Shown here in pieces: positions 4,020 through 63,049 of a DNA stretch of 64,000 nucleotides. A program made the translations under genes and the position numbers. The first letter of the stretch is position 1. The number at the start of each line of letters is the position of its first letter. The stretch is from Octopus vulgaris (taxonomy: Eukaryota), in contig OX597815.1 in NCBI GenBank assembly GCA_951406725.2, positions 15,934,001-15,998,000 on the forward strand. The letters are read 5' to 3'. A model generated the notes under the pieces. It searched no databases, was not told the origin of the DNA, and saw only the letters and a program-made list of their open reading frames with translations.

Positions 4020-4840
4020 ATTGAATTGAAAGCATCTAGTGTAGTATGGAGGCTGAGCCAACATTTTAACTGTGTGTAAAATTATGTGCTCTGGAAAGAT
4101 TTTTTAATGTTTTTATTCATTCATATTTCTTTTTATATCTAGTGCTCCATCTATTATTGATACTATTTTCACTTTAAGACCCATATCCTTCTTATTTAAG
4201 CTTCAAGATATTTGTATTTGAGCATGATCGTTGCCAGAGTGGCTATCTGGCCTCCGTGCCAGTGGCACGTAAAAGACATCATTCAAACGGGATCATTACC
4301 AGCATCGCTTTACTGACACCTGTGCCAGTGGCATGTGTAAAAGATTCGAGCGAGATTGTTGCCCATACTGCCTGACTGGCTCTGTGCTGGTGGCACGTAA
4401 AAGCACCCACTACACTCTCGGAGTGGTTGGCGTTAGGAAGGGCATCCAGCTGTAGAAACTCTGCCAGATCAAGATTGAAGCCTGGTGCTGCCATCTGGTT
4501 CGCCAGCCCTCAGTCAAATCGTCCAACCCCTGCTAGCATGGAAAGCGGACGTTAAATGATGATGATGATGATAGTTTCTCCACCTCTTCTGAAGTGATAT
4601 TTTAGTCAGAAAGTGTGGAGATTTGCATTAGGTTGTAGAGATGTTTGTCCCTGTCCTTAATAATTATATCTGGTTGATTTGCTTTGACCACCTTGTCAGT
4701 TTGGATAGGCGTGTCCCAGATGACTGACCAGGTCATTGTCATATACTGTTTGGTACATGCTTATGCTATTTTATACCAAGTAGAAGTTGGCCTGTTGTCC
4801 ATTGAATATAGCTGATAACTTTGCCCAACTGTTTAGAGGT
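4020..4840 (-). mobile_element. R4/Dong-like non-LTR retrotransposon 3' relic (restriction-like endonuclease domain), split by a SINE
   Basis: Minus strand reads VIWDTPIQTDKVVKANQPDIIIKD...EEVEKL, then after the SINE KYKYLEA*IRRIW...IIDGAL, matching the PD-type RLE motif pattern. Confidence 0.75.
4221..4571 (+). mobile_element. (GAT)n-tailed SINE nested in the R4/Dong relic
   Basis: Same family, with tail gatgatgatgatg at the right end. Confidence 0.85.
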
Positions 4841-6621: not shown

Positions 6622-7319
6622 TAAATAGAATTTATTTAGTAAGAGGATACAAATACAGCTTTTCACACAAAGTAAGAAATCAGATATTCACATGTTGTGG
6701 GTCCTTTGGATAACAAGTAAAAACAAGTCATGAGACAAAATTGTAAGAGTATCAGAAACACATGTGCAGTGTCATCTGTGAGGCTTAGTAAAAAAAAAAG
6801 ACATATTCAGTTCATGACCTGGACTTACTGTTATAAATTCATAGCAGGTGTCAACGAAGTTGAAACATGACAGTTAAGTGTCTCGTAGGCTGTGACAATA
6901 AAGTGAACAAATCACCATGATAAAGGAGGGAAACGACAGTTGTCTGAAATCTATTAGGCAGGCGTCCTTATAACAACAGTAATAAGAAGACAGCTTGGCA
7001 AACCGCATGTGGTCTGTGGCCTTAGGCAGAAGAAAGATGTTCATGCTCCTTGGTCTCGAAATGGTGAGAGAGAAAGACTGCCCCAAAACACCAGAATATA
7101 TAGGTGTCAGCTGCAATGCCACCTGGTGGCGTTTACCAGCAAAGGGATGCATTTCAGCTATCCTGCAAGGGTTTTTCATTTGTTCATTAATCTTCCACTT
7201 TCAATCAAAGTCTTTCCTCCTCAAACATTATATGCCATTTAACAATTGCTTTCCAACTGTTTTCCAGTTTCTTCTTTTCTTGAAATCGTTTACAATTTCT
7301 ATATATTACCTTTTAAACC

Positions 7320-19300: not shown

Positions 19301-22300
19301 TTATATTAAAAGATAATTTACAAATTTTCACGTTTAATCTGCTGACAAATTCTTATGGTTTTAGGTTACACACATTCACGGTTCTTGACATGAATGTAAG
19401 CCTTAAACTATTTCAACAATTTCCTGATGGAATCTCTACTTTCGTTTGTTTGTCTTGAAATCTGATGCAATTATTCCAAATTTATAAACTCTAAGGCATT
19501 TAACTGCTAACCACCAGTACATATGCTCTACAAGGCAGTGTGGCGATTTACTAAATGCATCTGTTCATTGTTACAACCATAGCGTTGAATTTACGTATTA
19601 ATCTCAATGATGTAAAAAGTGAATTGTACCTACAATGTTCTTTGGGCGATCTTTCGTTTTGACTCGAAAATATGTAAACAATTCGATGGTTGCTGTGATG
19701 TCTTGTCAACCTTTGTTGCTTGAGTTTACGTGCAATAAATTGATTATTCATAAAATATTTTAATGTTTTAAATGCAATTCCTAATAATTTTTAATTATAA
19801 AAATATAATAGGTCGTTTTAAACATCAAATAGCTGAGACGAGTAGAGTAAAATCGGAATCAAGGTTTAAAAAAAAATACACTGCTTTATTAGCTCTTCAT
19901 TCTAGGTTGGGGACTTCCCACGTGAAATAGTTCCTGAGTTAATAGATATCAGGTTATATTTAATATCAGATTAAAATTCACCATAAACAAACAAAAAATT
20001 ACCAGTTGGTGTTGAAAGATTGATATTCAATATCAACTTTCTGAAAGCCATGTCACTACCAATTGCTTGGAAAACTGGTCTTTCCACTGATGGTATCTAC
20101 TTGATAGTAAGCGCTATTTAAAGGTCATTTTTCGACTCGGATAACCAATATTTTGTGACTCATGTTTGCAAAAAATTGAATGGTGAGGTGGGAATGAGAC
20201 GGGGTTCAGAATTAAGCATCCCATAAATTATGCTAGAACAGATTACGCGACAGACAAGAAGGCTGCACAAATTTATTCACAAGCGATATCAGTTTTTTTC
20301 TTTTATGATACCTGTCGAATGTTTTGAAATATTTGTGGTTTTTACTGCTCTTTCCTGTTCATTAAGTCTTAATTTACAGTTAGGGTGCTCGCCCCGAGTT
20401 GGTTTCCTCAACTGTTTGAAAATTTCGTATTTATGAGGTTTTGCAGAGACACGCTTTCGAGGATGTAGATTACAATTGTGTTGATGTAATTTAGAAGCAA
20501 AATTTTTGGGAGGAATTTCGTATAATTCTATTTCATTCATTTATCAGATTTATGTTTGAAGTATTAACATTACATTATTTTATTTCGTTCTTTGATTTGG
20601 TTTACAAGATTTTTTATGTGTGAGTTCGTGTGTTGAAGCATATTATATTGTGTCTGAGGAGAGTCATTCTCTTTTGGTGCCTTATAATTTAACACACTCA
20701 CCGGTAAAATTTCCACCCTTTTTTTTTTTATTTTTCTAAAATTCGTTGTGTCTTGCAACCTTTTCAGTAGTTTTGAGTCAAAACTATCGAAAAGGTTGCA
20801 AGACGCAACGAAAATTTTAGAAAAATAAAAAAAGAAATAAATTTTACCGGTGAGTGTGTTAAATTATAAGGCACCAAAAGAGAAGGAACTCCCCAGACAC
20901 AACAGAACATTACATTATTTATTTTCCCGAATGTGCACTTCTGCAAAATATTTGGAGGTTTAGTAGGAAACAAAAACAGAAGTGAGAGAATAGGCCAGAA
21001 CTTCTTACTGGTGTTGTCAGCATGATTGCAATCTCACCTTCAAAAGCACCGCTACAAAATTCAATTAAAAAGTTTTTCAAAAGCTATGAGGAAACAGTCG
21101 GGATGGGAGATGCCAAATAGCATTTTTTCCATCGTTGGTACGTTATATTCATATGATGATGATGATGATATATATATATATATATATTTATAATCTGTTC
21201 TCTGTGTGTTATAAAATTTACCACCCAAGGTGCTAGAAATAACACGCTAACTGCTGTCTGTTTTTTGACAGAGCTGCCAAAATTTGAAATAAGTGGCGTG
21301 CCTTTTTTATGTATAGTTCATAGTGATCTCTACTGTGGTGCAAATCAGGAATAGCGCTCTTATTGATAATTTTCTTTAAAATTGGTGCATTTTGGGGATA
21401 ATGCAGTTTCGCCACCTCTCCTTAAAAAATGCCCCCTTTTTTTATTATTATTTTCGCAGTCCTACGTTTTGGGAGGCTAATGCAAGTTTCGCACCTCTCT
21501 TTGAAAAAAAATTTTTTTTTTTTCAGATCCCTACGTTTTAGATATCGGAGATTACAAATATGCAAAAAAAAAAAAAAAGTTTTAACCCTAAGCCACCAGT
21601 CCTCCACCATTTAAAATTTTGAACTTTTTCAAAAAAAATTTTCCCTGTTTTAGATGACAGATTCCGAATATGCAAGAAACCGCGTTTTCAAAATTTTAAA
21701 TTCAATAAGCATTATGTATATAAAGAGATAGATATGAATGAGTTGACAAATATATTTTATGAATAAACGGACAGGGATAAATAGATAATAAATAAATGGA
21801 TGAGAAGGTTTAAAATTGGGGGAAGGGGTGAAATTTGTGCCCCTTATTAAACTCATTTACATTAAATTACTATTTAAGGCAAGCACTAGTAAAACGTAAA
21901 TTCTTTTCACTTTAATGTTTTTGTCTATTTAATTTCGATTTGCATGTGTTCATCAATTTTCTACGATCTCTTGAAAGTAAACAAAATAAAACATTTAAAT
22001 TGGGCGGGGGTGGGATGAAATTAAAAAACAATTTTTTGCATATTCGTAATCTCCGACGTCAAGAATCCGGAAAGACTCTTTCCAAAAGATGTATTTTTTC
22101 AAGGAGAGGTGCGAAACTGCATTAGCCCCCATTAAGGTGTCGGAGATAACGAATATGCAAAAACAAAACCCCTCCCATTTAAATTTCTGATTCTTTTACT
22201 TTAAAGAGATCGTAGCGAATTGACGAACATGTGCAAATCGAAATTAGACAAAAACATTAAAATGAAAAGAATTTGTGTTTTACTTGTGTTTATAATCGTA

Positions 22301-40300: not shown

Positions 40301-43300
40301 GCTATGTTGTCATATAAACAATTTGATGAGTGAGTTGAGTTGCATAACATTTTAGTTGTATGGCCAACATTATTTTATTCGAATTGAACAATGTTATCAA
40401 TGTTGCTAGTATCTATTTGCAGGTGAAAGTTTTTTTATTAAATTCTTGATGTTTGTTTTTATCAGTTACATTTGTATATCTATTTGCTACTGTCTATTGA
40501 TGAAGTCATAAATTTCAATGTGGCTGTGAACGTCCTTAGATAATGAAACTTCTTACAAATTTCTGACATGCAGCCAAACCTCATAAATTGCTTGTCTTTT
40601 GTAGGCTGGTTAATTAATTACACCAGATTTATAGTTTATTGAGATGTGTAAATTAAACATGCTGAAGAGTTTATTTTAACTCTCATCAGCTGATATTTAA
40701 TTGCTTTATATAAATTTTAAAATTGGTTCATTGTTACATTTGGAATACATTTATAGTTTCTTTATTGCTATCATGTTAGTACCCGAAATTTTAAAAGAAC
40801 AAATGGAAAATATTTTCTCTACTTAGAATTGGGAAGCATTGATACAATATGGAATCCTTCGTGTCTAATTAAATCAGCATACAATATTTTCAGAGACCAT
40901 CACAATTTTTTTTCCACTTACTAGAAAAGATTTGGTGTTTAAATAAAGGCATATATTTTTGTATTTTTAGCTAATCATTTAGATAAGGGAATGCTTTTTT
41001 TTATATATATATTTTTTTTTTTTTTTCCCATCTGTTTAATTCATTTTAATCAATTCTATATTCATTCCACTGTAAGTTCCAAATGAATAATGTTTAAGTA
41101 TATATATAATATATATCATATATATTTTAATATTATTCTCTTCCCGTACAGTTTTCATATCTGCGTTGTTTTGTTTTGTTCTCCTGTCTTTTGTTTTCAA
41201 TTATGGAGTTCTATTTCTATCAAGCTTTCTATTCTGCTTAACTAAAATTATTTTTCCTATTCATATCTTTGTTTCTGAAATTACTTTTAGTGTGAAAGGA
41301 TTTGAGGTTTTTAAGTCGACTTTTTATTTCACCAGGCTATTTCCTTTTAAAAATAAAGTGTCTATTTTTATCTTGCGGTATATAACTTTCTTTACTTTAT
41401 ATGGTCATTTACCAAAATTTATTTTACTCCAGCACATCCTTAATTGATTACTATCTTTCTAGTAGTTTAATAAAATAATTCTTTTGTATAGTTGTTTTTA
41501 CACTTAGAAATTAATAGAGAAAGGTAGAATTATTCTTAAAACCATTCCATGTCCTTTTTTTAGTTATAGGAAAAGGTGGTGAACAGATATCAAGGTTACA
41601 AGCAGAAACGAGTTGTAAAATTCAAATAGCACCAGGTAGGTTTGTTTTTTAGCTCCTGACCATATCAGTTACCCTAAAGCATCCTACAGGAAGGCATTAA
41701 CCCTTATCCTGCTGATTTTCAAACTAGTTTGTTTCTAGTGGAATTAACAACCATTGTTAGCTCCTGATAGTGTAAACAAGTAGTTTGGAATCTTTATCAA
41801 AATTTGTTGGATTTTAAGTATAATTAATGGGCTTTTTTTTTCCTTTTTGTTCTGGTGTAATAATAAAGTTCAGAATAATTGAATTATTGGTCAGCTTGGA
41901 TTTCAAGATATCACCCTCTAAATTAAGAAGTTAGTTTACGTGACAAAAATTTGTTTTTCAATTTGAGAATGTTTTTTGAATGTTAAAATATTTTCATATT
42001 TAAAAAAAAATCAATATATATATATATATATGTATGTATGTATATATATATGCACTTTGTTTTTGTTAATACTTTTATATATCTGTAAATCTCTCTGCAG
42101 GATAAGGGTTATATTGGTATATTTAATAAATGGGCTAATATTGATATGGAAAACTGCTTGTCACTAATGACCTTTGACCACAAAATAGATTTCCACTGAA
42201 ATTGATATTTTGATATAGACTTAGTCACTATGCAATATGGTTGGGGATGCCTTCCTTTTGATAAATGGTAGAAATATGAAATCCTTTTAGATTAGGTGAA
42301 CATTGAAAGAAAGGTGAAACAAAAATTATACATTGATATTTTGTTAAAGATTACAGGTTAAATTGTAAGCATAAGATTAATTACACGTTCTGATTTGTTA
42401 TAAGTGTGCTTCTAAGTGACCTATTTGCATAAAATTCTACTGTAAATTCCCCTCACCTTTCTATCAATGACTGTGTGTGGTAAAACTTATTTAATAGCAG
42501 TTAATTTGGTTTAATTTAAATACAATATAGAGCAACAATAAAGACACTTACTAATTGGTTTGACATAACTGTCATAAATTATAATTAAGAAAATTTCAGA
42601 AATTGATTCCCTTCCTCCATTTGTTTCTTTTATTACAAAACTATTAGTTTTAAAATTGCCTCCTTAATTGATCAATCATTAAAACTGCATTTAAAAGAAG
42701 TATCTTAAAAAATTTAACGTTTTCATTCACAGATTTTCTTTGTAAATATTTAAGTAAATTTCTGTATATTTTTAAAGTAATGGATATTGTAGTTAGAGCA
42801 TTATTTTTTTTTTTTCACTGTTTTCCTTTTTTTCGTTTTTGTACTTATTGGTATCAACTGTCTCTGGCAAAAATTCTTGATAATTCTAACAAAAATCTTA
42901 AATCTTACATTTTGTTTTGAAATATGCTGCTCTAACAGTAGAATTGATTACCATCAGTTTTACTCCCTAGTTATGGTGTTTAATACGTTTCTAGTATATT
43001 ATAAACAGTTTTTATATTTTTTTTATTGATTTTTAACAACTGAACACAAGCCACTTAAATTCATATGATGATAATTTAAATCATAATACATAATTTGCTA
43101 ATGATTCTGAAAAGCTGGTATTTAGAAGGTATAGTTAATTGTTAGATACAGAATTTTAAAGACCTACAAAAGGAATTGAAGCATTTATGATTAAGAAATT
43201 AGATATTAGAAATGTTGGATAGTTTGAATGCTGTAATCACTGGCTTTGGTCGTGCACAATATTTACAAGTTTTATTGGGACTGTTTCATCATCTCTAAAA

Positions 43301-58200: not shown

Positions 58201-61200
58201 GTTACATGCTGCTTCAAATGACTTAAGTTTGTTAGTCTACTAATCAATATACTCATACTCTAATAGTTTAATTTTCATATTTTCACTAGCCAATCTTTTG
58301 TGTTTCAATCACTAGACTGTGGCCATGCTAGGCCACTGCCTTAAAGGGTTTAGTCAAGCATCAACCCAAATACTTATTTAAGTCTGGTACTTATTCTATC
58401 AGTCTCTTTTGTCAAACAAAGCTATAGTGACATATAACCCAACACCAGCTGTCAAGTAGTGATCACACACATATGTACGTATAGGCACAAGTGTGGGGCT
58501 ATGGTTAAAAAGCTTGTTTCTCTTGGGCAAGCATCTTCTATTGTCCAGATCAGGGTGTTGTGAGTAGATTTGGTAAATGGAACCTGAAAGAAACCTGTTT
58601 GTGTTCCTTTGTCATGGTATCGTATGTAAATAAGCATCACTGTTGGAGAAGTGTTGTTTATTGTCGGTCTTCCATGAAAAACGTGTCTGACTGTGTGGAG
58701 TATTACCTGGTAGCAGGTGAGGGTTGGCATCAAGAAGTAGCAAATCTGCCTCAACAAATTCCATGCAAGCAGGGAAATGTAGACATTAAATGATATATAG
58801 TGGAACATTTGTAAACCAAAACTGTTTATTCCATTGGAAATTCAAGCAGGGTTTTGTACTTAGTAAAAGCAAGACAGCAAATGATACTCCCAGCTTGTCA
58901 CCAACCATTGTTCCTGGTTTGCATTAACTCTATCACCTGAGAAAAAATTGTTCATAAACTAAGGTTTGTTTGTGTGCGCACACACTAACCTATAGAGGTT
59001 CCTGACAGTTTTTGTCTGCCAGAATCACTCAAAGCGTTAGTTGACTTGGATCTATTGTAGAAGATACTTGTCCAAGATGCCACACAATGAGACTGAACCC
59101 CAAACCGCATGGCTGCAAAACAGGTTTCCTAACCACACATCCATGATTAAAAGTTCAGAATGATAATTTTATCTAACTCCTTAATAAGTTTCCAATTAAA
59201 TTGTTACTGCAATTTCAATGAAAAATATAAGGTAATATTAGATAAAATCTTCTAGAATTTTGAAAGTAATTGAGAATTGTGGCTGATTTTTCTTTATTAA
59301 TTTTTTTTTTTTTTGTTACTAAATCTTTTTTTTATTAGACTGATGCTTAATATATGGCTTAGTTGATTCTTAAGATTTTTTAATGTTATTTAATTCCCAG
59401 TGCGCTATAATGGGGTTTTATATCATGAATTTGGAAGCAGCCTTGATGGTTGGTGTCAGGTTTGATTGAATTATTTTGTAGTAAATGAGAGGATTGTATA
59501 TTTTAGCAACATCAAGAAAAATGTTGCTGGCTGGCTTCGTTATTTTGTTGGAGACAAATTTGATTCAGTTTGTCTTATAACATTCTGTCCCATTGATTAA
59601 TTTTATAAATCTAATATTGTTGTGGAATTGATTTTCTATTGCACCATGTTATGTAACATAACTAGCATGAATATAATTGCTTGGTAATTAACTTTTTTTT
59701 ACTTGATTATTATACTTTTCAGCAACAAGGCGGTATTGGTCGTGGCTTTCCTATGGGCCGAGGTAGAGGTCGTGGTAGAGGTGGTGGCCCTTTTAATAAC
59801 ATGACTGGTCCTCCTGGTCCAAATGGTCCTGGCGGTAGAGGAATGGGACGTGGCTTTGATCCAAATTTTCAAGATGAAACTACTTATGCTGTGCCTGCTG
59901 ACAAATGTGGTTTAGTAATTGGCAAAGGTAATATCCATTACTAAGATGTGATTAATAAAATCCTTTTTCGATATCTTGTGTAATTCGTTTTCCTAACTAA
60001 TTTTGTTACACTTGGTTTTAGGTGGAGAAACAATCCGAGAAATTATACGACAGTCTGGTGCTCATGTTGAGCTTCAGCGGCAACCTCCACCAAATCCCAA
60101 TGAAAAGATCTTTAATGTCAGAGGTAGTCCACAACAAATCCAGCATGCTATACAAATGATATGTGAAAAAGCAGGTTTGGTAAGTTGCAGATATATATAT
60201 ATATGTTGTTTTTTTTCACTTTGTGATATTAATATTTTAGTTTTTATTTAATTTGTAAAATTTGTTTCTCTTTTAGCAACCACCACCACCAGGTCCTAAT
60301 GGACCAGCTGGACCTGGAGCACCAGGTGCACCTGGAGCTCCTCCAGCACCTGGGAGTGCTGGTCCCCATGGTGCTCCTGGGGCTCCTTCTGGACCTAATG
60401 CACCAGGTGTACCTCCAGCTGGGGCAGGGTATGATCAGTATGGACAATATGCTCAACCAAGGTATGTAGTCTTTTTATTTCCATTTGATGTCTTTAAAGA
60501 CTTCAAGTTTGGGTTATGTGTAAAAATCTATGTTTCTTTTTCCATCCATGTATCATTACAGCCAGCAAGCACCAGCTGGCCAGCAGCCATATGGAGGTCA
60601 AGCATGGGGAGCAGCATATCAACAAGGTTATCCACAACAGCAGCAACAACAAGCTGATCCAAGTAAATTTTTTTATTTCACACTTTTACACAGCACCAAG
60701 GGCAAAATTAATGTGTAGGCAATGTCATTATTAGCAATTAAAGTTGTAATATTTTTTTGGGGGGGTGGGGTGGAATTTGGGGTTTTAACAAACATGTACA
60801 TATTGTGGTTTTTATAGTCAAGGAGTTTATTTCGCAAACATGATTTCTGCTTAGTTCCTATATGACACCTTATGCAAATGACTTCAATTATACTTTGACT
60901 GTTATTTTAAGAAAATATATAGATAAAAGAGATAGAGAATGCTAAAGCATGTCATTTGTATGTTGTCGGTGTTCATTCACGCAATTTAAAAGCTTGTGCT
61001 GTTTATATCTTGTGAAATAGGGCATACTAGGACTATGACCCGGCGTTACCGGGTCATACTGCTGCTAGTGCATGCATATACAGCTGCGTGCGTGTGCATT
61101 TACACGCGAGTACTGTCCCAATTTCCAACCAATCACATACAGCTAGCAGGCATTCAATTGGCGTGTCAAGTTTCGGGCATTTTGATTGGGTTTTGGATAG

Positions 61201-62504
61201 AAAATTCACAAAAAAGTCACTTCTATTGATTTTTTTTACTGGCTTTGCTGGGTGACTGGGGAAATGTAAAGATGTGCACGACCATCCTTGGATGGTTTTG
61301 AATGACCATAGAAAGTGCGAGCCCTCTAACTGAAAAGTTGTGGATTTGTATAAAGGGCACGCACACATTTCCGTTTATTTATATATATATATATAGAGAG
61401 AGAGATAATAAACTAAACAACAATAAAATAGGTACTAAACTGAAATACTAGTCCTTTTGCATTAGCATTACCATGATAGTATGGGTTGGACAAAATTTGC
61501 TGCTGCGTCTGCTGGGGTGCAACTTGTTGCTGAGGCTGTTGCTGTGGTTGAGCTACATACTTGTATGTCATCATCTAACAAAGTAAGTGCGAATGTCAAT
61601 GTCACACTTTGTCAACTTTCCCCTTAGAGGCTGTTGCCCAACATATAATACCGTTTGGATATTTGTGAGTAAATTACAAACATTCCTGGCTGAATCTGAC
61701 CGTGCAATCCTGAAATTCTGGATTCCCAAGTTTTCGCAACTGCAATTGCTTTCGGCAATTGAGATTAATTGCGAAACCCCGCTTTTTCTTTTTCTTTTTT
61801 CTTTTTTTTTTTCCTGCTACAGATATGATCGTCACTGGGGTATGACTCTGGATTAAAAGCTGCTCTATTGGGCGACTTTTAAACTAGTTGTACTGCATTT
61901 GTATTAACCTTGGTAGCTGGGTTGTGCCTGTGACCTTCGCATACGCTCACAGACCAGTAAGCTCAGTATGGTTATTGTTCTTCAAATGCCAAGTCAATGG
62001 TTATTTAGGAATGGGCAAAGGTATAGGTTATATGAGAAAGGGAGTACAAGTGAGTGGAAGTACCTCAATTAGAATCGTTTGCAAACTAAAATTCTCTGGA
62101 TTTACATAGGAATTTTTAATTGTTCCCATTGCAAGTCTATTTTTAGATAACTTCTGATTCTCAGGTTGATTCAAGCTTCTTACCTTACATTCAATATATA
62201 GTATCTTTTCCAGATAAACAGGCTCAAGATGCTAATGCAGCCGCATGGGCTGCTTATTATGCTCAGTATTATGCACAGTATGGTCAATATGGTCAGTACC
62301 AGGCCCAGCAAGGAGGCCAAGGGGCCCCTCAACAGCCAGGCCAACCAACTGGCCCAGGAGCACCCCAACAACCCCAGTTACAGCAGCCACCTCAACAGCA
62401 GCCCCAACAACAACAACCCCAACAGCAACAGCCTCAGCAACAAGTTGCACCCCAGCAGACGCAGCAGCAAGCTGCACAACAACCCCAGCAACAGCAGCAG
62501 CCTG
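15693..62504 (+). CDS. FUBP1: Far upstream element-binding protein (FUBP1/KHSRP/FUBP3-Psi family) gene; 18 coding exons in window, 3' end beyond window
   Basis: Hand-spliced exons join into one open frame of 2089 nt with GT-AG introns and matching phases. Protein has N-box [23 protein letters not shown], four KH domains ([36 protein letters not shown]) and the AWAAYYAQ motif. Probably a single invertebrate co-ortholog of FUBP1/2/3, so the symbol is family-level. Confidence 0.95.
16254..16570. repeat. Compound (TA)/(CA) microsatellite
   Basis: Direct inspection; produces the YIHT-repeat ORFs. Confidence 0.92.
17200..17591. mobile_element. Merlin-type non-autonomous DNA transposon with an internal tandem duplication
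   Basis: GGTAC termini (GGNRM), long TIRs GGTAC(T/C)ACTAGCGAACAGTGGTCCCGGTGCGCGC, 8-bp TSD aaacaatt / aaacagtt, internal ggttagggtta. Confidence 0.8.
20648..20902. repeat. ~255-bp near-perfect palindrome (fold-back element) in FUBP intron 1
   Basis: ttctcttttggtgccttataatttaacacactcaccggtaaaattt pairs with aaattttaccggtgagtgtgttaaattataaggcaccaaaagagaa; tiny loop near 20775. Confidence 0.9.
21390..22420. repeat. Complex DNA-transposon-derived inverted-repeat cluster
   Basis: ~21810-22057 is an imperfect inverted repeat of ~22139-22360; motif taatgcagtttcgc(c)acctctc occurs at ~21397 and ~21477 and inverted at ~22100-22127. Confidence 0.75.
23709..23929. mobile_element. TTAA-flanked piggyBac-type MITE in FUBP intron 1
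   Basis: Near-identical to 2621-2841, with TTAA on both sides. Confidence 0.88.
25083..25158 (+). CDS. FUBP1: FUBP exon 2 [25 protein letters not shown]
   Basis: Acceptor ttcctcAG, donor G|GTAAGT, ends in phase 1; IAAKI and KRP.EDG are family motifs. Confidence 0.93.
29880..30620 (-). mobile_element. RTE-clade LINE relic (RT C-terminus and Cys-rich domain)
   Basis: Minus-strand fragments YAND (YADD), NLESKGL..VNIAKT and [15 protein letters not shown]. Confidence 0.7.
32270..33440 (-). mobile_element. Degenerate Tc1/mariner-superfamily (maT/rosa-like) transposon relic
   Basis: Minus ORF 32432..32740 has FQQARVTAH (FQQDGATAH) and [16 protein letters not shown] (SPDLTP.DFFLWGYLK); weak degenerate TIR-like ends. 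Confidence 0.7.
34601..34642 (+). CDS. FUBP1: FUBP exon 3 (G)[13 protein letters not shown]
   Basis: tttctttcAG acceptor, C|GTAAGT donor, 42 nt keeps phase 1; PD.KK resembles FUBP1 PDAKK. Confidence 0.88.
35190..35405. mobile_element. Diverged partial copy of the TTAA MITE family
   Basis: aatttagtaaaataact core and right end ggttggtatcagaagggTTAA. Confidence 0.6.
36167..36206 (+). CDS. FUBP1: FUBP exon 4 (P)[12 protein letters not shown](R)
   Basis: ttgcAG acceptor after a pyrimidine tract, AG|GTAAGA donor, phase 1 to 2. Confidence 0.88.
36444..36628 (+). CDS. FUBP1: FUBP exon 5, start of KH1 (...[12 protein letters not shown])
   Basis: ttttctAG acceptor, A|GTAAGT donor, phase 2 to 1; EEYKVPD matches the FUBP1 KH1 start. 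Confidence 0.93.
41564..41635 (+). CDS. FUBP1: FUBP exon 6, KH1 core [24 protein letters not shown]
   Basis: tttttttAG acceptor, CAG|GTAGGT donor, GxxG loop. Confidence 0.95.
45500..46700 (+). mobile_element. Highly decayed CR1/L2/Jockey-type LINE RT relic, interrupted at ~45997-46246
   Basis: Fragments [18 protein letters not shown]-like, SYHPISL and, after the insertion, a QYGF-like TATGGCTTT. Confidence 0.6.
49826..49883 (+). CDS. FUBP1: FUBP exon 7 [19 protein letters not shown](S)
   Basis: ttttcAG acceptor, AG|GTATCT donor; resembles FUBP1 DSGGLPERSC.LTG. Confidence 0.93.
50117..50399. repeat. Tandem duplication (133-bp and ~150-bp units) in intron 7
   Basis: atcccggtatcatttcttg...ctatcctcttttgttca occurs twice; the copies differ by a ~17-bp indel and a few substitutions. 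Confidence 0.92.
51378..51546 (+). CDS. FUBP1: FUBP exon 8, KH1 end and KH2 start (...[25 protein letters not shown])
   Basis: tatttAG acceptor, CAA|GTAAGT donor, phase 2 to 0. Confidence 0.95.
51920..52270 (+). mobile_element. tRNA-derived SINE in intron 8
   Basis: Similar to 11375-11830. Confidence 0.8.
52545..53562 (-). mobile_element. 5'-truncated CR1-like LINE (reverse transcriptase relic)
   Basis: [54 protein letters not shown] (ORFs 53278..53562 and 53046..53237). Confidence 0.9.
54202..54300 (+). CDS. FUBP1: FUBP exon 9 [33 protein letters not shown]
   Basis: ttacAG acceptor, GGG|GTAAGT donor; VKMVMIQD and DKPLRITG are KH2 motifs of the family. Confidence 0.95.
54422..54472 (+). 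CDS. FUBP1: FUBP exon 10 [17 protein letters not shown]
   Basis: ttttAG acceptor, ATG|GTAAGT donor, phase 0/0. Confidence 0.9.
54862..54963 (+). CDS. FUBP1: FUBP exon 11, Gly-rich KH2-KH3 linker [34 protein letters not shown]
   Basis: ttgtAG acceptor, GAC|GTAAGT donor; NEYGS resembles FUBP1. Confidence 0.9.
56007..56430 (+). mobile_element. (GAT)n-tailed SINE (56007-56219) plus a second degenerate copy
   Basis: Same family; further degenerate copies at ~34050-34212 and ~50880-51050. Confidence 0.8.
57207..57309 (+). CDS. FUBP1: FUBP exon 12, KH3 [34 protein letters not shown]
   Basis: Long pyrimidine tract plus ctAG, CAG|GTATGT donor. Confidence 0.95.
57793..57893 (+). CDS. FUBP1: FUBP exon 13, KH3 end [34 protein letters not shown]
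   Basis: ctgtAG acceptor, AAT|GTAAGG donor; DDG..PER and GPPD are conserved. Confidence 0.94.
58300..59145. mobile_element. Degenerate SINE fragments in both orientations in intron 13
   Basis: Minus body ~58300-58460, plus head/body ~58480-58800, minus head ~59000-59145. Confidence 0.65.
59723..59927 (+). CDS. FUBP1: FUBP exon 14, RG-rich linker and KH4 start (...[14 protein letters not shown])
   Basis: ttttcAG acceptor, AAG|GTAATA donor; lies in ORF 59681..59944. Confidence 0.95.
60022..60179 (+). CDS. FUBP1: FUBP exon 15, KH4 core [53 protein letters not shown]
   Basis: ttttAG acceptor, TTG|GTAAGT donor. Confidence 0.95.
60277..60461 (+). CDS. FUBP1: FUBP exon 16, Pro/Gly/Ala-rich ([20 protein letters not shown]...[10 protein letters not shown])
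   Basis: ctcttttAG acceptor, AAG|GTATGT donor, phase 0 to 2. Confidence 0.92.
60562..60662 (+). CDS. FUBP1: FUBP exon 17 [34 protein letters not shown]
   Basis: ttacAG acceptor, A|GTAAAT donor, phase 2 to 1; WG.AY resembles FUBP1. Confidence 0.9.
61027..61405 (-). mobile_element. Non-autonomous Helitron (~380 bp)
   Basis: On the minus strand: 5' TC start followed by (TC)n(TA)n, 3' CTAG end, subterminal hairpin TATGACCCGG-taacg-CCGGGTCATA, insertion between A and T, no TSD. Confidence 0.85.
61497..61545 (-). repeat. 49-nt perfect inverted copy of FUBP exon 18 coding sequence (62422-62470)
   Basis: ttgctgctgcgtctgctggggtgcaacttgttgctgaggctgttgctgt is the exact reverse complement of 62422-62470, checked base by base. 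Confidence 0.97.
62214..62504 (+). CDS. FUBP1: FUBP exon 18 [26 protein letters not shown]... plus Gln/Pro-rich tract
   Basis: ttttccAG acceptor, CTG|GTGAGT donor; AWAAYYA is the DUF1897 (Tyr-rich A/B box) motif. Confidence 0.94.
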
Positions 62505-63049
62505 GTGAGTGATAATTGGAAATATTTTAATGTTTCAGAGTGTTTGTATTCACAATCTGAATATAGAGGTTCATTTTTCAACATGTAATAGATTTAAAAT
62601 ATATGTTTCTATTGACCTTCAAACATAAAAACAGTGAAATTAAAAATATAGATATGGTTTATATTTTCAGCATCAACTTAGTTTTGGAAGCTTGGTATTT
62701 ACCTTTAATATTCATGTATGGGAGGGAAAAATGTCTTTGCAGCTGTGTTGCTAATACCTTTTCTTCTAATCTATATTTTGTCTGACTAATAACTTTTGCT
62801 TGTTCATTAGTCAACTCTCAACCAATATTTATGAAGCTGTTCAGCCTTTGATGTCACATTGTGTACTTGCTAAATTGGTAAAGTGGTTAGCCTTGTACTG
62901 GCTTCTTCTGCTCAATGATGGGTTCTGGTTATGTAACTTTGTTGGCATTAAGGCTTGGTTGATTGTGTTGGACTACTGGATGTTAATAGTAAAGTGGAAT
63001 TTTGTGTGGCTGTACTACCAACAACATTCTCCAGATTCTCCATACAATG

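Follow-up and report, generated by a model that had tools for sequence, protein, structure and literature searches.

A perfect antisense copy of 49 nt of coding exon 18 in the preceding intron of the octopus FUBP1/Psi gene, and its predicted pairing with the exon

The analysed window is a stretch of 64,000 nt of Octopus vulgaris DNA, which holds exons of a gene identified as octopus FUBP1/Psi, coding for an RNA-binding protein, as the best protein matches are so named. Four KH_1 domains and FUBP_C were recognized in the protein, all above the Pfam cut-offs, and this combination is the likeness that it shares with the FUBP1/KHSRP/Psi family. The exons were counted by piecing together protein mapping and splice sites, giving exon 17 at 60562..60662 (+), coding exon 18 of 19 at 62202..62504 (+; 303 nt, 101 codons), and exon 19, which begins just past the window at L013:4636. 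Independent sequencing runs were examined as assembled contigs (all 23 entries listed are contigs), none recorded as RNA and four of them 'RNA-like', from which editing levels, strand and tissue are unreadable. The 303-nt form of exon 18, starting at 62202, was used in all four RNA-like runs, and a 291-nt form with an alternative acceptor at 62214 was detected in two of 11 Octopus database isoforms (P0001 and P0125, one of them from O. bimaculoides). The exon had been described as phase-symmetric and 291 nt long: the symmetry holds, both forms being in frame, while the length is not that of the RNA-like runs. FUBP_C passes alone only in exon 19 (aa 703–737), and the AWAAYY motif of exon 18, taken as its own stretch, stays below the pass. 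This motif, putatively the A/B box of Psi and a candidate for U1-70K binding, had been placed next to the tract described below; it lies in the same exon, but about 60 codons upstream of it.

Sequence matching revealed that positions 61497..61545 (+) of the intron are an antisense copy of positions 62422..62470 (+) of exon 18. The reverse complement is exact over 49/49 bases, and 876 nt separate the two arms. The exonic arm is a Gln/Pro tract of 16 full codons with 18 adenosines, 12 of which would recode if edited, 11 from Gln to Arg and one from Thr to Ala. The original prediction was thus confirmed in its coordinates, spacing and codon count. It was also right that the match is more than a coincidence of CAG repeats, since the core is non-repetitive and the ends are sharp, and a chance match of such repeats was rejected on this ground. 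The pair is the longest exact inverted match of the whole window. In a genome search with 61380-61700, the 49-mer was listed at no other place than these two among the 40 matches scored out of 63 candidates, which is a lower bound on its copies.

The original prediction had named an assembly artefact as a possible source of the copy. Junctions between the intronic arm and its flanks were detected in five of the seven independent runs examined, three of the five being genome-sized contig sets. The left junction was present in runs X15, X17 and X1, and the right one in X16, X1 and X8. The contig of X8 enters the arm by 30 letters, one below the 31-letter bridging threshold, and such a stop is accounted for by the expected breaking of contigs at repeats. 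In X2 the contig takes in no more than 11 arm letters, and that of X3 ends before the arm. Few changes separate the runs from the window, and the arm letters covered were unchanged in every run reaching the arm, under three organism labels, an observation that is also compatible with constraint. That so short an inverted copy is perfectly identical could point to an artefact; the recurrence of the junctions demonstrates that the copy is real and no assembly error, and this explanation is effectively refuted. X2, X3 and X8 have no cover over 61414-61496, which supports no inference.

The arm sits in a recognizable pre-existing site. The decayed 3' end of an abundant repeat, which we assume to be a SINE and call SINE-like, lies at 61468..61491 (−), shows 83–88% identity to the copies in the window and is interrupted by the insert. 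A five-base filler without any template found (61492..61496, +) leads into the arm, and beyond it GGTTG (61546..61550, +) resumes the SINE-like sequence. These five bases are complementary to exon positions 62414-62418 across a 3-nt gap, a possible junction microhomology, and no complementary bases were found at the left junction. The 11-mer left of the insert has 104 other matches, 58 of which go on with GGTT like the right flank. In an empty-site test, the joined flanks, aligned to these copies, outscored 297 of 300 controls with random intron continuations (3/300 reached the score), pointing to an insert copied from nearby DNA into this site. No empty allele was seen among the seven runs examined. 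A high-copy repeat with a (TA)n(GA)n run lies upstream of the arm (61020..61390, placed by the depth table), and an old dispersed repeat (61570..61860, +) lies within the loop. The latter shows 71–78% identity to other genomic copies, whereas the arm is 100% identical to its template, which was taken as a sign of youth. Zero changes in 49 nt have a probability of 0.61 at 1% divergence and of 0.37 at 2%, so that the perfect identity is explained without selection. Of the two causes formerly offered for it, recent birth is supported and strong constraint is not needed.

As a background, 890,300 bases were sampled, in which 56 non-simple perfect inverted repeats of at least 40 nt within 5 kb were found; 19 of these were unique in the sample, and three of the 19 had little flank similarity. 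Besides the arm, these three comprise two local inversions (49 nt, 840 nt apart; 48 nt, 1029 nt apart), which lie outside long ORFs and were found in the genome search as pairs only. Both keep decayed similarity on one flank and are thus no exact equivalents of the arm. Their uniqueness in the genome and their size and spacing, which are like those of the copy, make a young templated insertion its likely origin. The five complementary bases at the right junction would fit templated insertions primed by microhomology or microhomeology, which build up as germline variants (PMC8421209). The MMBIR or template-switch insertions of that study resemble the present case in being short, inverted and germline, with a nearby template, and perhaps in imperfect microhomology at one junction; the template is here about 0.9 kb off, compared to less than 100 bp in the yeast events. 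A further difference is that the insert was copied from an exon of its own transcript and therefore has a consequence at the RNA level. Taken together, the copy likely arose as a recent local insertion, probably by a template switch, and appears to be young and nearly neutral. An older and longer retro-copy was considered and rejected, as the flanks matched mRNA or neighbouring DNA no better than shuffles did (7–69 of 100 reached the score).

Folding of 1,121 nt predicted an intron–exon duplex of −106.5 kcal/mol with a mean pairing probability of 0.995, and the stable pre-mRNA duplex proposed earlier is borne out as a prediction. Pairing is predicted to continue for 5 bp (61546-61550 with 62414-62418) past a 3-nt bulge. 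The unpaired probability of the exonic arm was 0.005 with the intronic arm and 0.47 without it. In contrast, values with versus without the arm were 0.55 and 0.54 for the acceptor and 0.23 and 0.24 for the donor. As splice-site accessibility is unchanged in the fold, a splicing effect, if any, would act via the masked exon body.

One contig of run X2 raised a different possibility for the origin. The intron contig 61535-62231 runs on for 20 letters which, together with 10 shared letters, match, in reverse complement, 30 nt that span the junction of the spliced exons 18|19, and the window-type continuation of the arm is absent from the X2 listing. Both features would fit the capture of RNA-derived sequence at the insertion site, the intron of organism B carrying an antisense copy that crosses the 18/19 junction and was templated or converted from spliced mRNA or cDNA. 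However, they were seen at a single contig end of a single RNA-like run, whose joint retains a base explained only by the window-type arm, and the window's arm spans no splice junction. A second exon site (62480..62495, +), where X2 turns into antisense spliced mRNA, is complementary to the right edge of the arm at 15 of 16 bases and offers a ready site for mispriming on the mRNA, which is some 50 times deeper. Inversions by fold-back are described as cDNA artefacts (PMC13722937); the joint of X2 is likely such a fold-back, and an RNA-derived insert is accordingly quite improbable. The consequences of the copy proposed at the outset, skipping and recoding, fared differently. In-frame skipping of exon 18 exists as annotated isoforms: exactly the 101 aa of the exon are missing from two annotated proteins, P0127 with 654 aa from O. 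sinensis and P0128 with 640 aa from O. vulgaris. The skipped form was found in none of four O. bimaculoides and none of three full-length cuttlefish-cluster proteins, and protein searches revealed no further cephalopod skip forms or fragments over exon 18 among the candidates scored. Such isoform lists depend on how deeply each species has been annotated, and the comparison with O. sinensis and O. bimaculoides was one of proteins, so that pairing the arm with the skipped isoform species by species is tentative at best. A predicted pairing that masks the exon and an annotated skipped isoform are what structure-mediated skipping would show, and we infer that the duplex probably causes the skipped form. 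In human, stable long-range pairings reduce the inclusion of looped-out exons (PMC8052449). The predicted octopus pairing resembles those of the PCCR catalogue in its stability, its span of about 0.9 kb and the looping out of a splice site, with a skipped isoform annotated. It differs in that one arm lies within the exon, while the human exons lie wholly inside the loop, and in that this arm is coding sequence, while the PCCRs, which are conserved, are mostly intron–intron. A stronger claim is that the duplex is a retained and regulated switch, yielding in the O. vulgaris group a substantial and tissue-dependent share of a short FUBP1 that lacks one tyrosine-rich repeat. The isoform annotated in two species and absent from the O. 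bimaculoides proteins, the preserved frame and the very stable duplex speak for it, as does the requirement of C-terminal YM repeats for transactivation by Drosophila Psi (PMC5027480). Yet exon 18 is included in all four RNA-like runs (contigs, in which minority forms are invisible), the splice sites do not change in accessibility, and exon 19 with its FUBP_C is kept in the skipped form; regulation of this kind was judged rather unlikely. The 17-19 junction is not among the joints or loose ends listed for X2, where contigs cannot show absence. Exons other than exon 18 are also skipped in this gene, and alternative sites are used, in each of the three Octopus species.

The arm could also be a working editing-site complementary sequence (ECS), through which ADAR recodes Gln to Arg appreciably in neural tissue. 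It is indeed an intronic sequence complementary to an exon of the same pre-mRNA, and its stem holds the 12 recoding adenosines. Its geometry matches known intron–exon substrates: like the GluA2/GluR-B Q/R and R/G ECS (PMC1920255), it would form a duplex over coding adenosines, CAG codons included. Intronic hairpins are commonly edited in O. vulgaris (PMC9699675), and lineage-specific inverted repeats are able to create lineage-specific editing (PMC4053975). Inverted Alu pairs of the latter source (NEIL1, GLI1) likewise provide new dsRNA from a recent insertion near coding sequence; in octopus there is no mobile-element pair, and the exon itself would be the duplex partner. Against this stands that no difference over the arm, and no A>G in the paired tract, was found in the contigs of all four RNA-like runs (majority level only, tissues unknown), two of which themselves carry an arm junction. 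This comparison was made at min_share 1, and contigs drop rare variants. X2 showed no difference across the whole 303-nt exon 18. The main RNA form is unedited and includes exon 18. The tract is identical in the O. bimaculoides protein, and Arg was absent from it in all 12 cephalopod proteins that contain it, a weak indication as most are genome-derived. Perfect long duplexes generally undergo diffuse rather than single-site editing, which was also counted against a working ECS. Known intronic ECSs are imperfect, conserved and site-selective, whereas the octopus arm is perfect, apparently young, upstream of the exon and unedited in contigs. As contigs show just majority-level editing in unknown tissues, the recoding idea, unsupported so far, is weakened and not refuted, and a working ECS appears distinctly unlikely. 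The names FUBP and KHSRP are absent from the supplement texts of PMC8382921, PMC7703385 and PMC4384741, and the accession and name of the gene from that of PMC9699675, all small texts likely without site lists. Coleoid editing studies have largely omitted intron–exon pairing (PMC8891338).

The reading that is preferred, with moderate confidence for the whole, is that a local DNA template switch recently copied 49 nt antisense into a decayed SINE-like repeat. The arm would pair with exon 18 in the pre-mRNA, hiding 16% of the exon, and the duplex, ending 34 nt before the donor, would act like a built-in antisense oligo. Masking of the exon would then probably lead to occasional in-frame skipping, and the 101 aa lost would take with them one AWAAYY repeat and the Gln/Pro linker; editing would be at most low and scattered, and not a selected recoding. 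It is possible, though unlikely, that one DNA-repair accident made a built-in antisense switch, found only in the O. vulgaris group, giving both a short FUBP1 and neuronal Gln-to-Arg forms; if true, editing and splicing substrates of cephalopods can arise fully formed in one event. Neither this locus nor an exon-derived perfect antisense insert was reported among the literature matches listed, and no published report was found on the splicing of the octopus FUBP1/Psi gene. The locus offers a clean and datable natural test of how cephalopods gain new ADAR substrates and exons under structural control: a single perfect 49-bp stem covers a coding tract that is conserved, many tissues already have RNA data, and the protein is identical in a close outgroup. 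Editing or skipping that tracks the arm would mean a switch born in one step; the lack of both would mean that a stem of −100 kcal/mol over 0.9 kb can be silent despite a very active ADAR.

As a minor observation, the depth in X1 was 51.5 over the arm piece and 58.8 and 64.4 alongside; contig depth is unrankable, and diffuse editing is conceivable.

The intronic arm at 61497–61545 in intron 17 is the exact reverse complement of 62422–62470 in exon 18, with sharp ends and a separation of 876 nt. The 49-nt antisense copy announced in the original prediction was thus borne out by sequence comparison in both coordinates and identity, and it forms the longest exact inverted match within the window. 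A genome search with 61380–61700 as query gave 63 candidates; among the 40 of them that were scored, the 49-mer was detected at these two sites only, and the remaining 38 are an old repeat right of the arm. Seven independent sequencing runs were compared over the arm. Its left junction was recovered without any difference in X15, X17 and X1, and its right junction in X16, X1 and X8; the junction contigs each end 30 letters into the arm, in line with the break expected of an assembly graph on meeting a repeat. Run X2 (organism B) holds 11 letters of the arm, while the X3 contigs stop short of it. Elsewhere, the runs differ from the window by a few substitutions and small deletions, and therefore take in other individuals. 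An assembly error as the source of the 49-mer was ruled out by these junctions in independent runs, which makes an artefact extremely improbable. Small deletions at 62599 and 60756–60766, common to or private to X15, X17 and X2, are ordinary polymorphism of the flanking introns.

The gene product is of the FUBP1/KHSRP/Psi type. One exon of the window matches, at 100% identity, a protein that bears the name far upstream element-binding protein 1, and the database isoform P0122 (755 aa, under both the O. vulgaris and the O. sinensis label) maps exon by exon onto the window. The protein displays four KH_1 domains and FUBP_C, and the exonic arm sits in coding exon 18 of 19. In all four RNA-like runs (X1, X2, X3, X8) exon 17 is joined to 62202, giving an exon of 303 nt, and the acceptor at 62214 was among the listed joints of none of them. 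The form of 291 nt (from 62214) matches isoforms P0001 and P0125, and 62214 is therefore an alternative acceptor common with O. bimaculoides. The exon length of 291 nt originally proposed thus holds for an annotated form but not for the main one; both are in frame. The tandem acceptors lie 12 nt apart, and the choice between them adds or removes four residues; O. sinensis and O. bimaculoides each have both isoforms annotated. Exon 18 encodes the same 101 residues in O. bimaculoides, and the cuttlefish cluster has a close version of them. Within the exon, CC>TG at 62373–62374 (Pro>Leu) in X15 and X16 makes a perfect short palindrome of 62370–62377 and the adjoining bases (X16 depth <5), and is likely a template-switch mutation; a silent G>A at 62323 is common to the same two runs. 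Elsewhere in the gene, P0121, P0126 and P0130, from three Octopus species, miss 24 KH1 residues including the IGKGG loop (exon near 41540–41640), a loss which would disable that domain, and another annotated isoform lacks the 14-residue exon 3.

As exon 18 is slow to change, the identity of the arm requires youth of the intronic copy alone. For 49 nt to remain unchanged, the probability is 0.61 at a divergence of 1%, 0.37 at 2%, 0.08 at 5% and only 0.006 once 10% is reached. The left flank (61468–61491) is a decayed fragment of an abundant, SINE-like repeat end. Its 11-base core has 104 other matches in 890,300 sampled bases, 58 of them followed by GGTT, and the sequence right of the arm likewise starts with GGTT. 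The joined flanks align to those copies with a mean score of 36.9; random intron continuations average 32.3, and 3 of 300 attain the higher score, which points to a likely insert of 54 bases in an old repeat, made of five bases without a found template and the 49-mer. The GGTTG right of the arm is complementary to exon positions 62414–62418 over a 3-base gap, which would fit the imperfect microhomology of a templated insertion. Such insertions accumulate as human germline variants (PMC8421209). A longer decayed mRNA copy was not found in the flanks of the arm.

Similar pairs were searched in the same 890,300-base sample, where 56 non-simple perfect inverted repeats of at least 40 nt were counted within 5 kb. 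Nineteen are unique in the sample, and three of these, the exon 18 pair included, show little flank similarity. The other two measure 49 nt, 840 nt apart (L039:5951–5999 with 6840–6888), and 48 nt, 1029 nt apart (L088:3375–3422 with 4452–4499). For both, the genome search returned their own pair only and no open frame above 65 codons was found around them; decayed similarity kept on one flank suggests that older inverted copies have recently undergone conversion with each other. Judging from these three cases, the octopus genome repeatedly gives rise to nearby inverted copies whose core of 50 bases is perfect, at a very rough rate of one per 300 kb, and a coding template would therefore be expected now and then. 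Perfect inverted pairs with short spacers at 20667–20712/20839–20884 (46 nt) and 17206–17233/17558–17585 (28 nt) are possibly the ends of small DNA transposons.

An X2 intron contig (61535–62231) extends leftwards by 20 extra letters; together with 10 shared letters, they reproduce the spliced exon 18/19 junction in reverse complement. If this joint is genomic, the insertion site in organism B would have captured spliced RNA. A cDNA fold-back is more likely, because 15 of 16 bases at the right edge of the arm match exon positions 62480–62495, the mRNA has about 50 times the depth of the intron, and the base kept at the joint is explicable by a window-type arm alone. A true, RNA-templated allele is accordingly held to be very doubtful. 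Under either reading, organism B carries the right edge of the arm.

The pre-mRNA duplex claimed between the arms was supported by the predicted fold of 61440–62560, in which the pairing reaches −106.5 kcal/mol with a mean pair probability of 0.995. When the arm is removed in silico, the exon tract goes from 0.005 to 0.47 unpaired, and the predicted values for the acceptor (0.55, 0.54) and the donor (0.23, 0.24) stay the same. With slightly better than even confidence, we regard the arm as a young accident: a local templated insertion would have placed an antisense 49-mer of exon 18 into the old repeat in intron 17, and its pairing with the exon in the pre-mRNA would form a stem that likely causes a low level of in-frame skipping and no more than diffuse editing.

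In-frame skipping of exon 18, as originally predicted, does occur among annotated isoforms: two of the 11 Octopus cluster proteins, P0127 (O. sinensis) and P0128 (O. vulgaris), lack exactly its 101 residues, which are kept in all four O. bimaculoides forms and in three full-length cuttlefish-cluster proteins. This distribution, a comparison of proteins, is the one that a young antisense arm would produce. In human, stable long-range pairings reduce the inclusion of looped-out exons (PMC8052449). The pattern calls for caution: the skipped forms are annotations and not read counts, other alternative forms of the gene exist in all three Octopus species, and exon 18 is included in the assembled form of all four RNA-like runs. 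A regulated splicing switch is considered unlikely. Skipping would deprive the protein of one AWAAYY repeat and of the Gln/Pro linker, and leave it the exon-19 repeat scoring as FUBP_C. The Psi repeats have a putative link to U1-70K. In Drosophila Psi, transactivation resides in the C-terminal YM repeats (PMC5027480).

Editing of the 18 adenosines in the exonic arm would produce 11 Gln>Arg changes, one Thr>Ala and six silent ones. The octopus pair would work in like manner to known intron–exon duplexes. Exon contigs fall on the arm when the intron alone is the target, and differences were listed from 1 in 100. Over the arm, none was detected in the runs X1, X2, X3 and X8, which come from four studies and are presumed RNA, nor across the whole exon 18 in the X2 contigs. 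Of the 12 cephalopod proteins with the exon, none shows arginine in the stretch from the AWAAYY motif to exon 19; most of them are genome-derived and thus weak evidence. Since contigs drop rare variants and the RNA status of the four runs is a guess, majority-level editing alone is visible; the predicted ADAR recoding is absent from these samples at that level. A working editing guide is considered rather improbable, and as no editing was seen, the arm is a candidate, not an established member, of the editing-site complementary sequences. Introns and 3′ UTRs hold most of the editing in O. vulgaris (PMC9699675), so that some diffuse editing of the stem seems likely.

Literature searches found no paper on this octopus locus, which is ordinary in kind, yet an unusually clean test of the birth of cephalopod editing and splicing substrates. 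Past the exon 19 stop codon, a long AT-rich stretch (L013:4800–10000, beyond the window) is a candidate long 3′ UTR, into which a 1,787-nt X8 contig, judged by its length, extends from the arm via exon 19.
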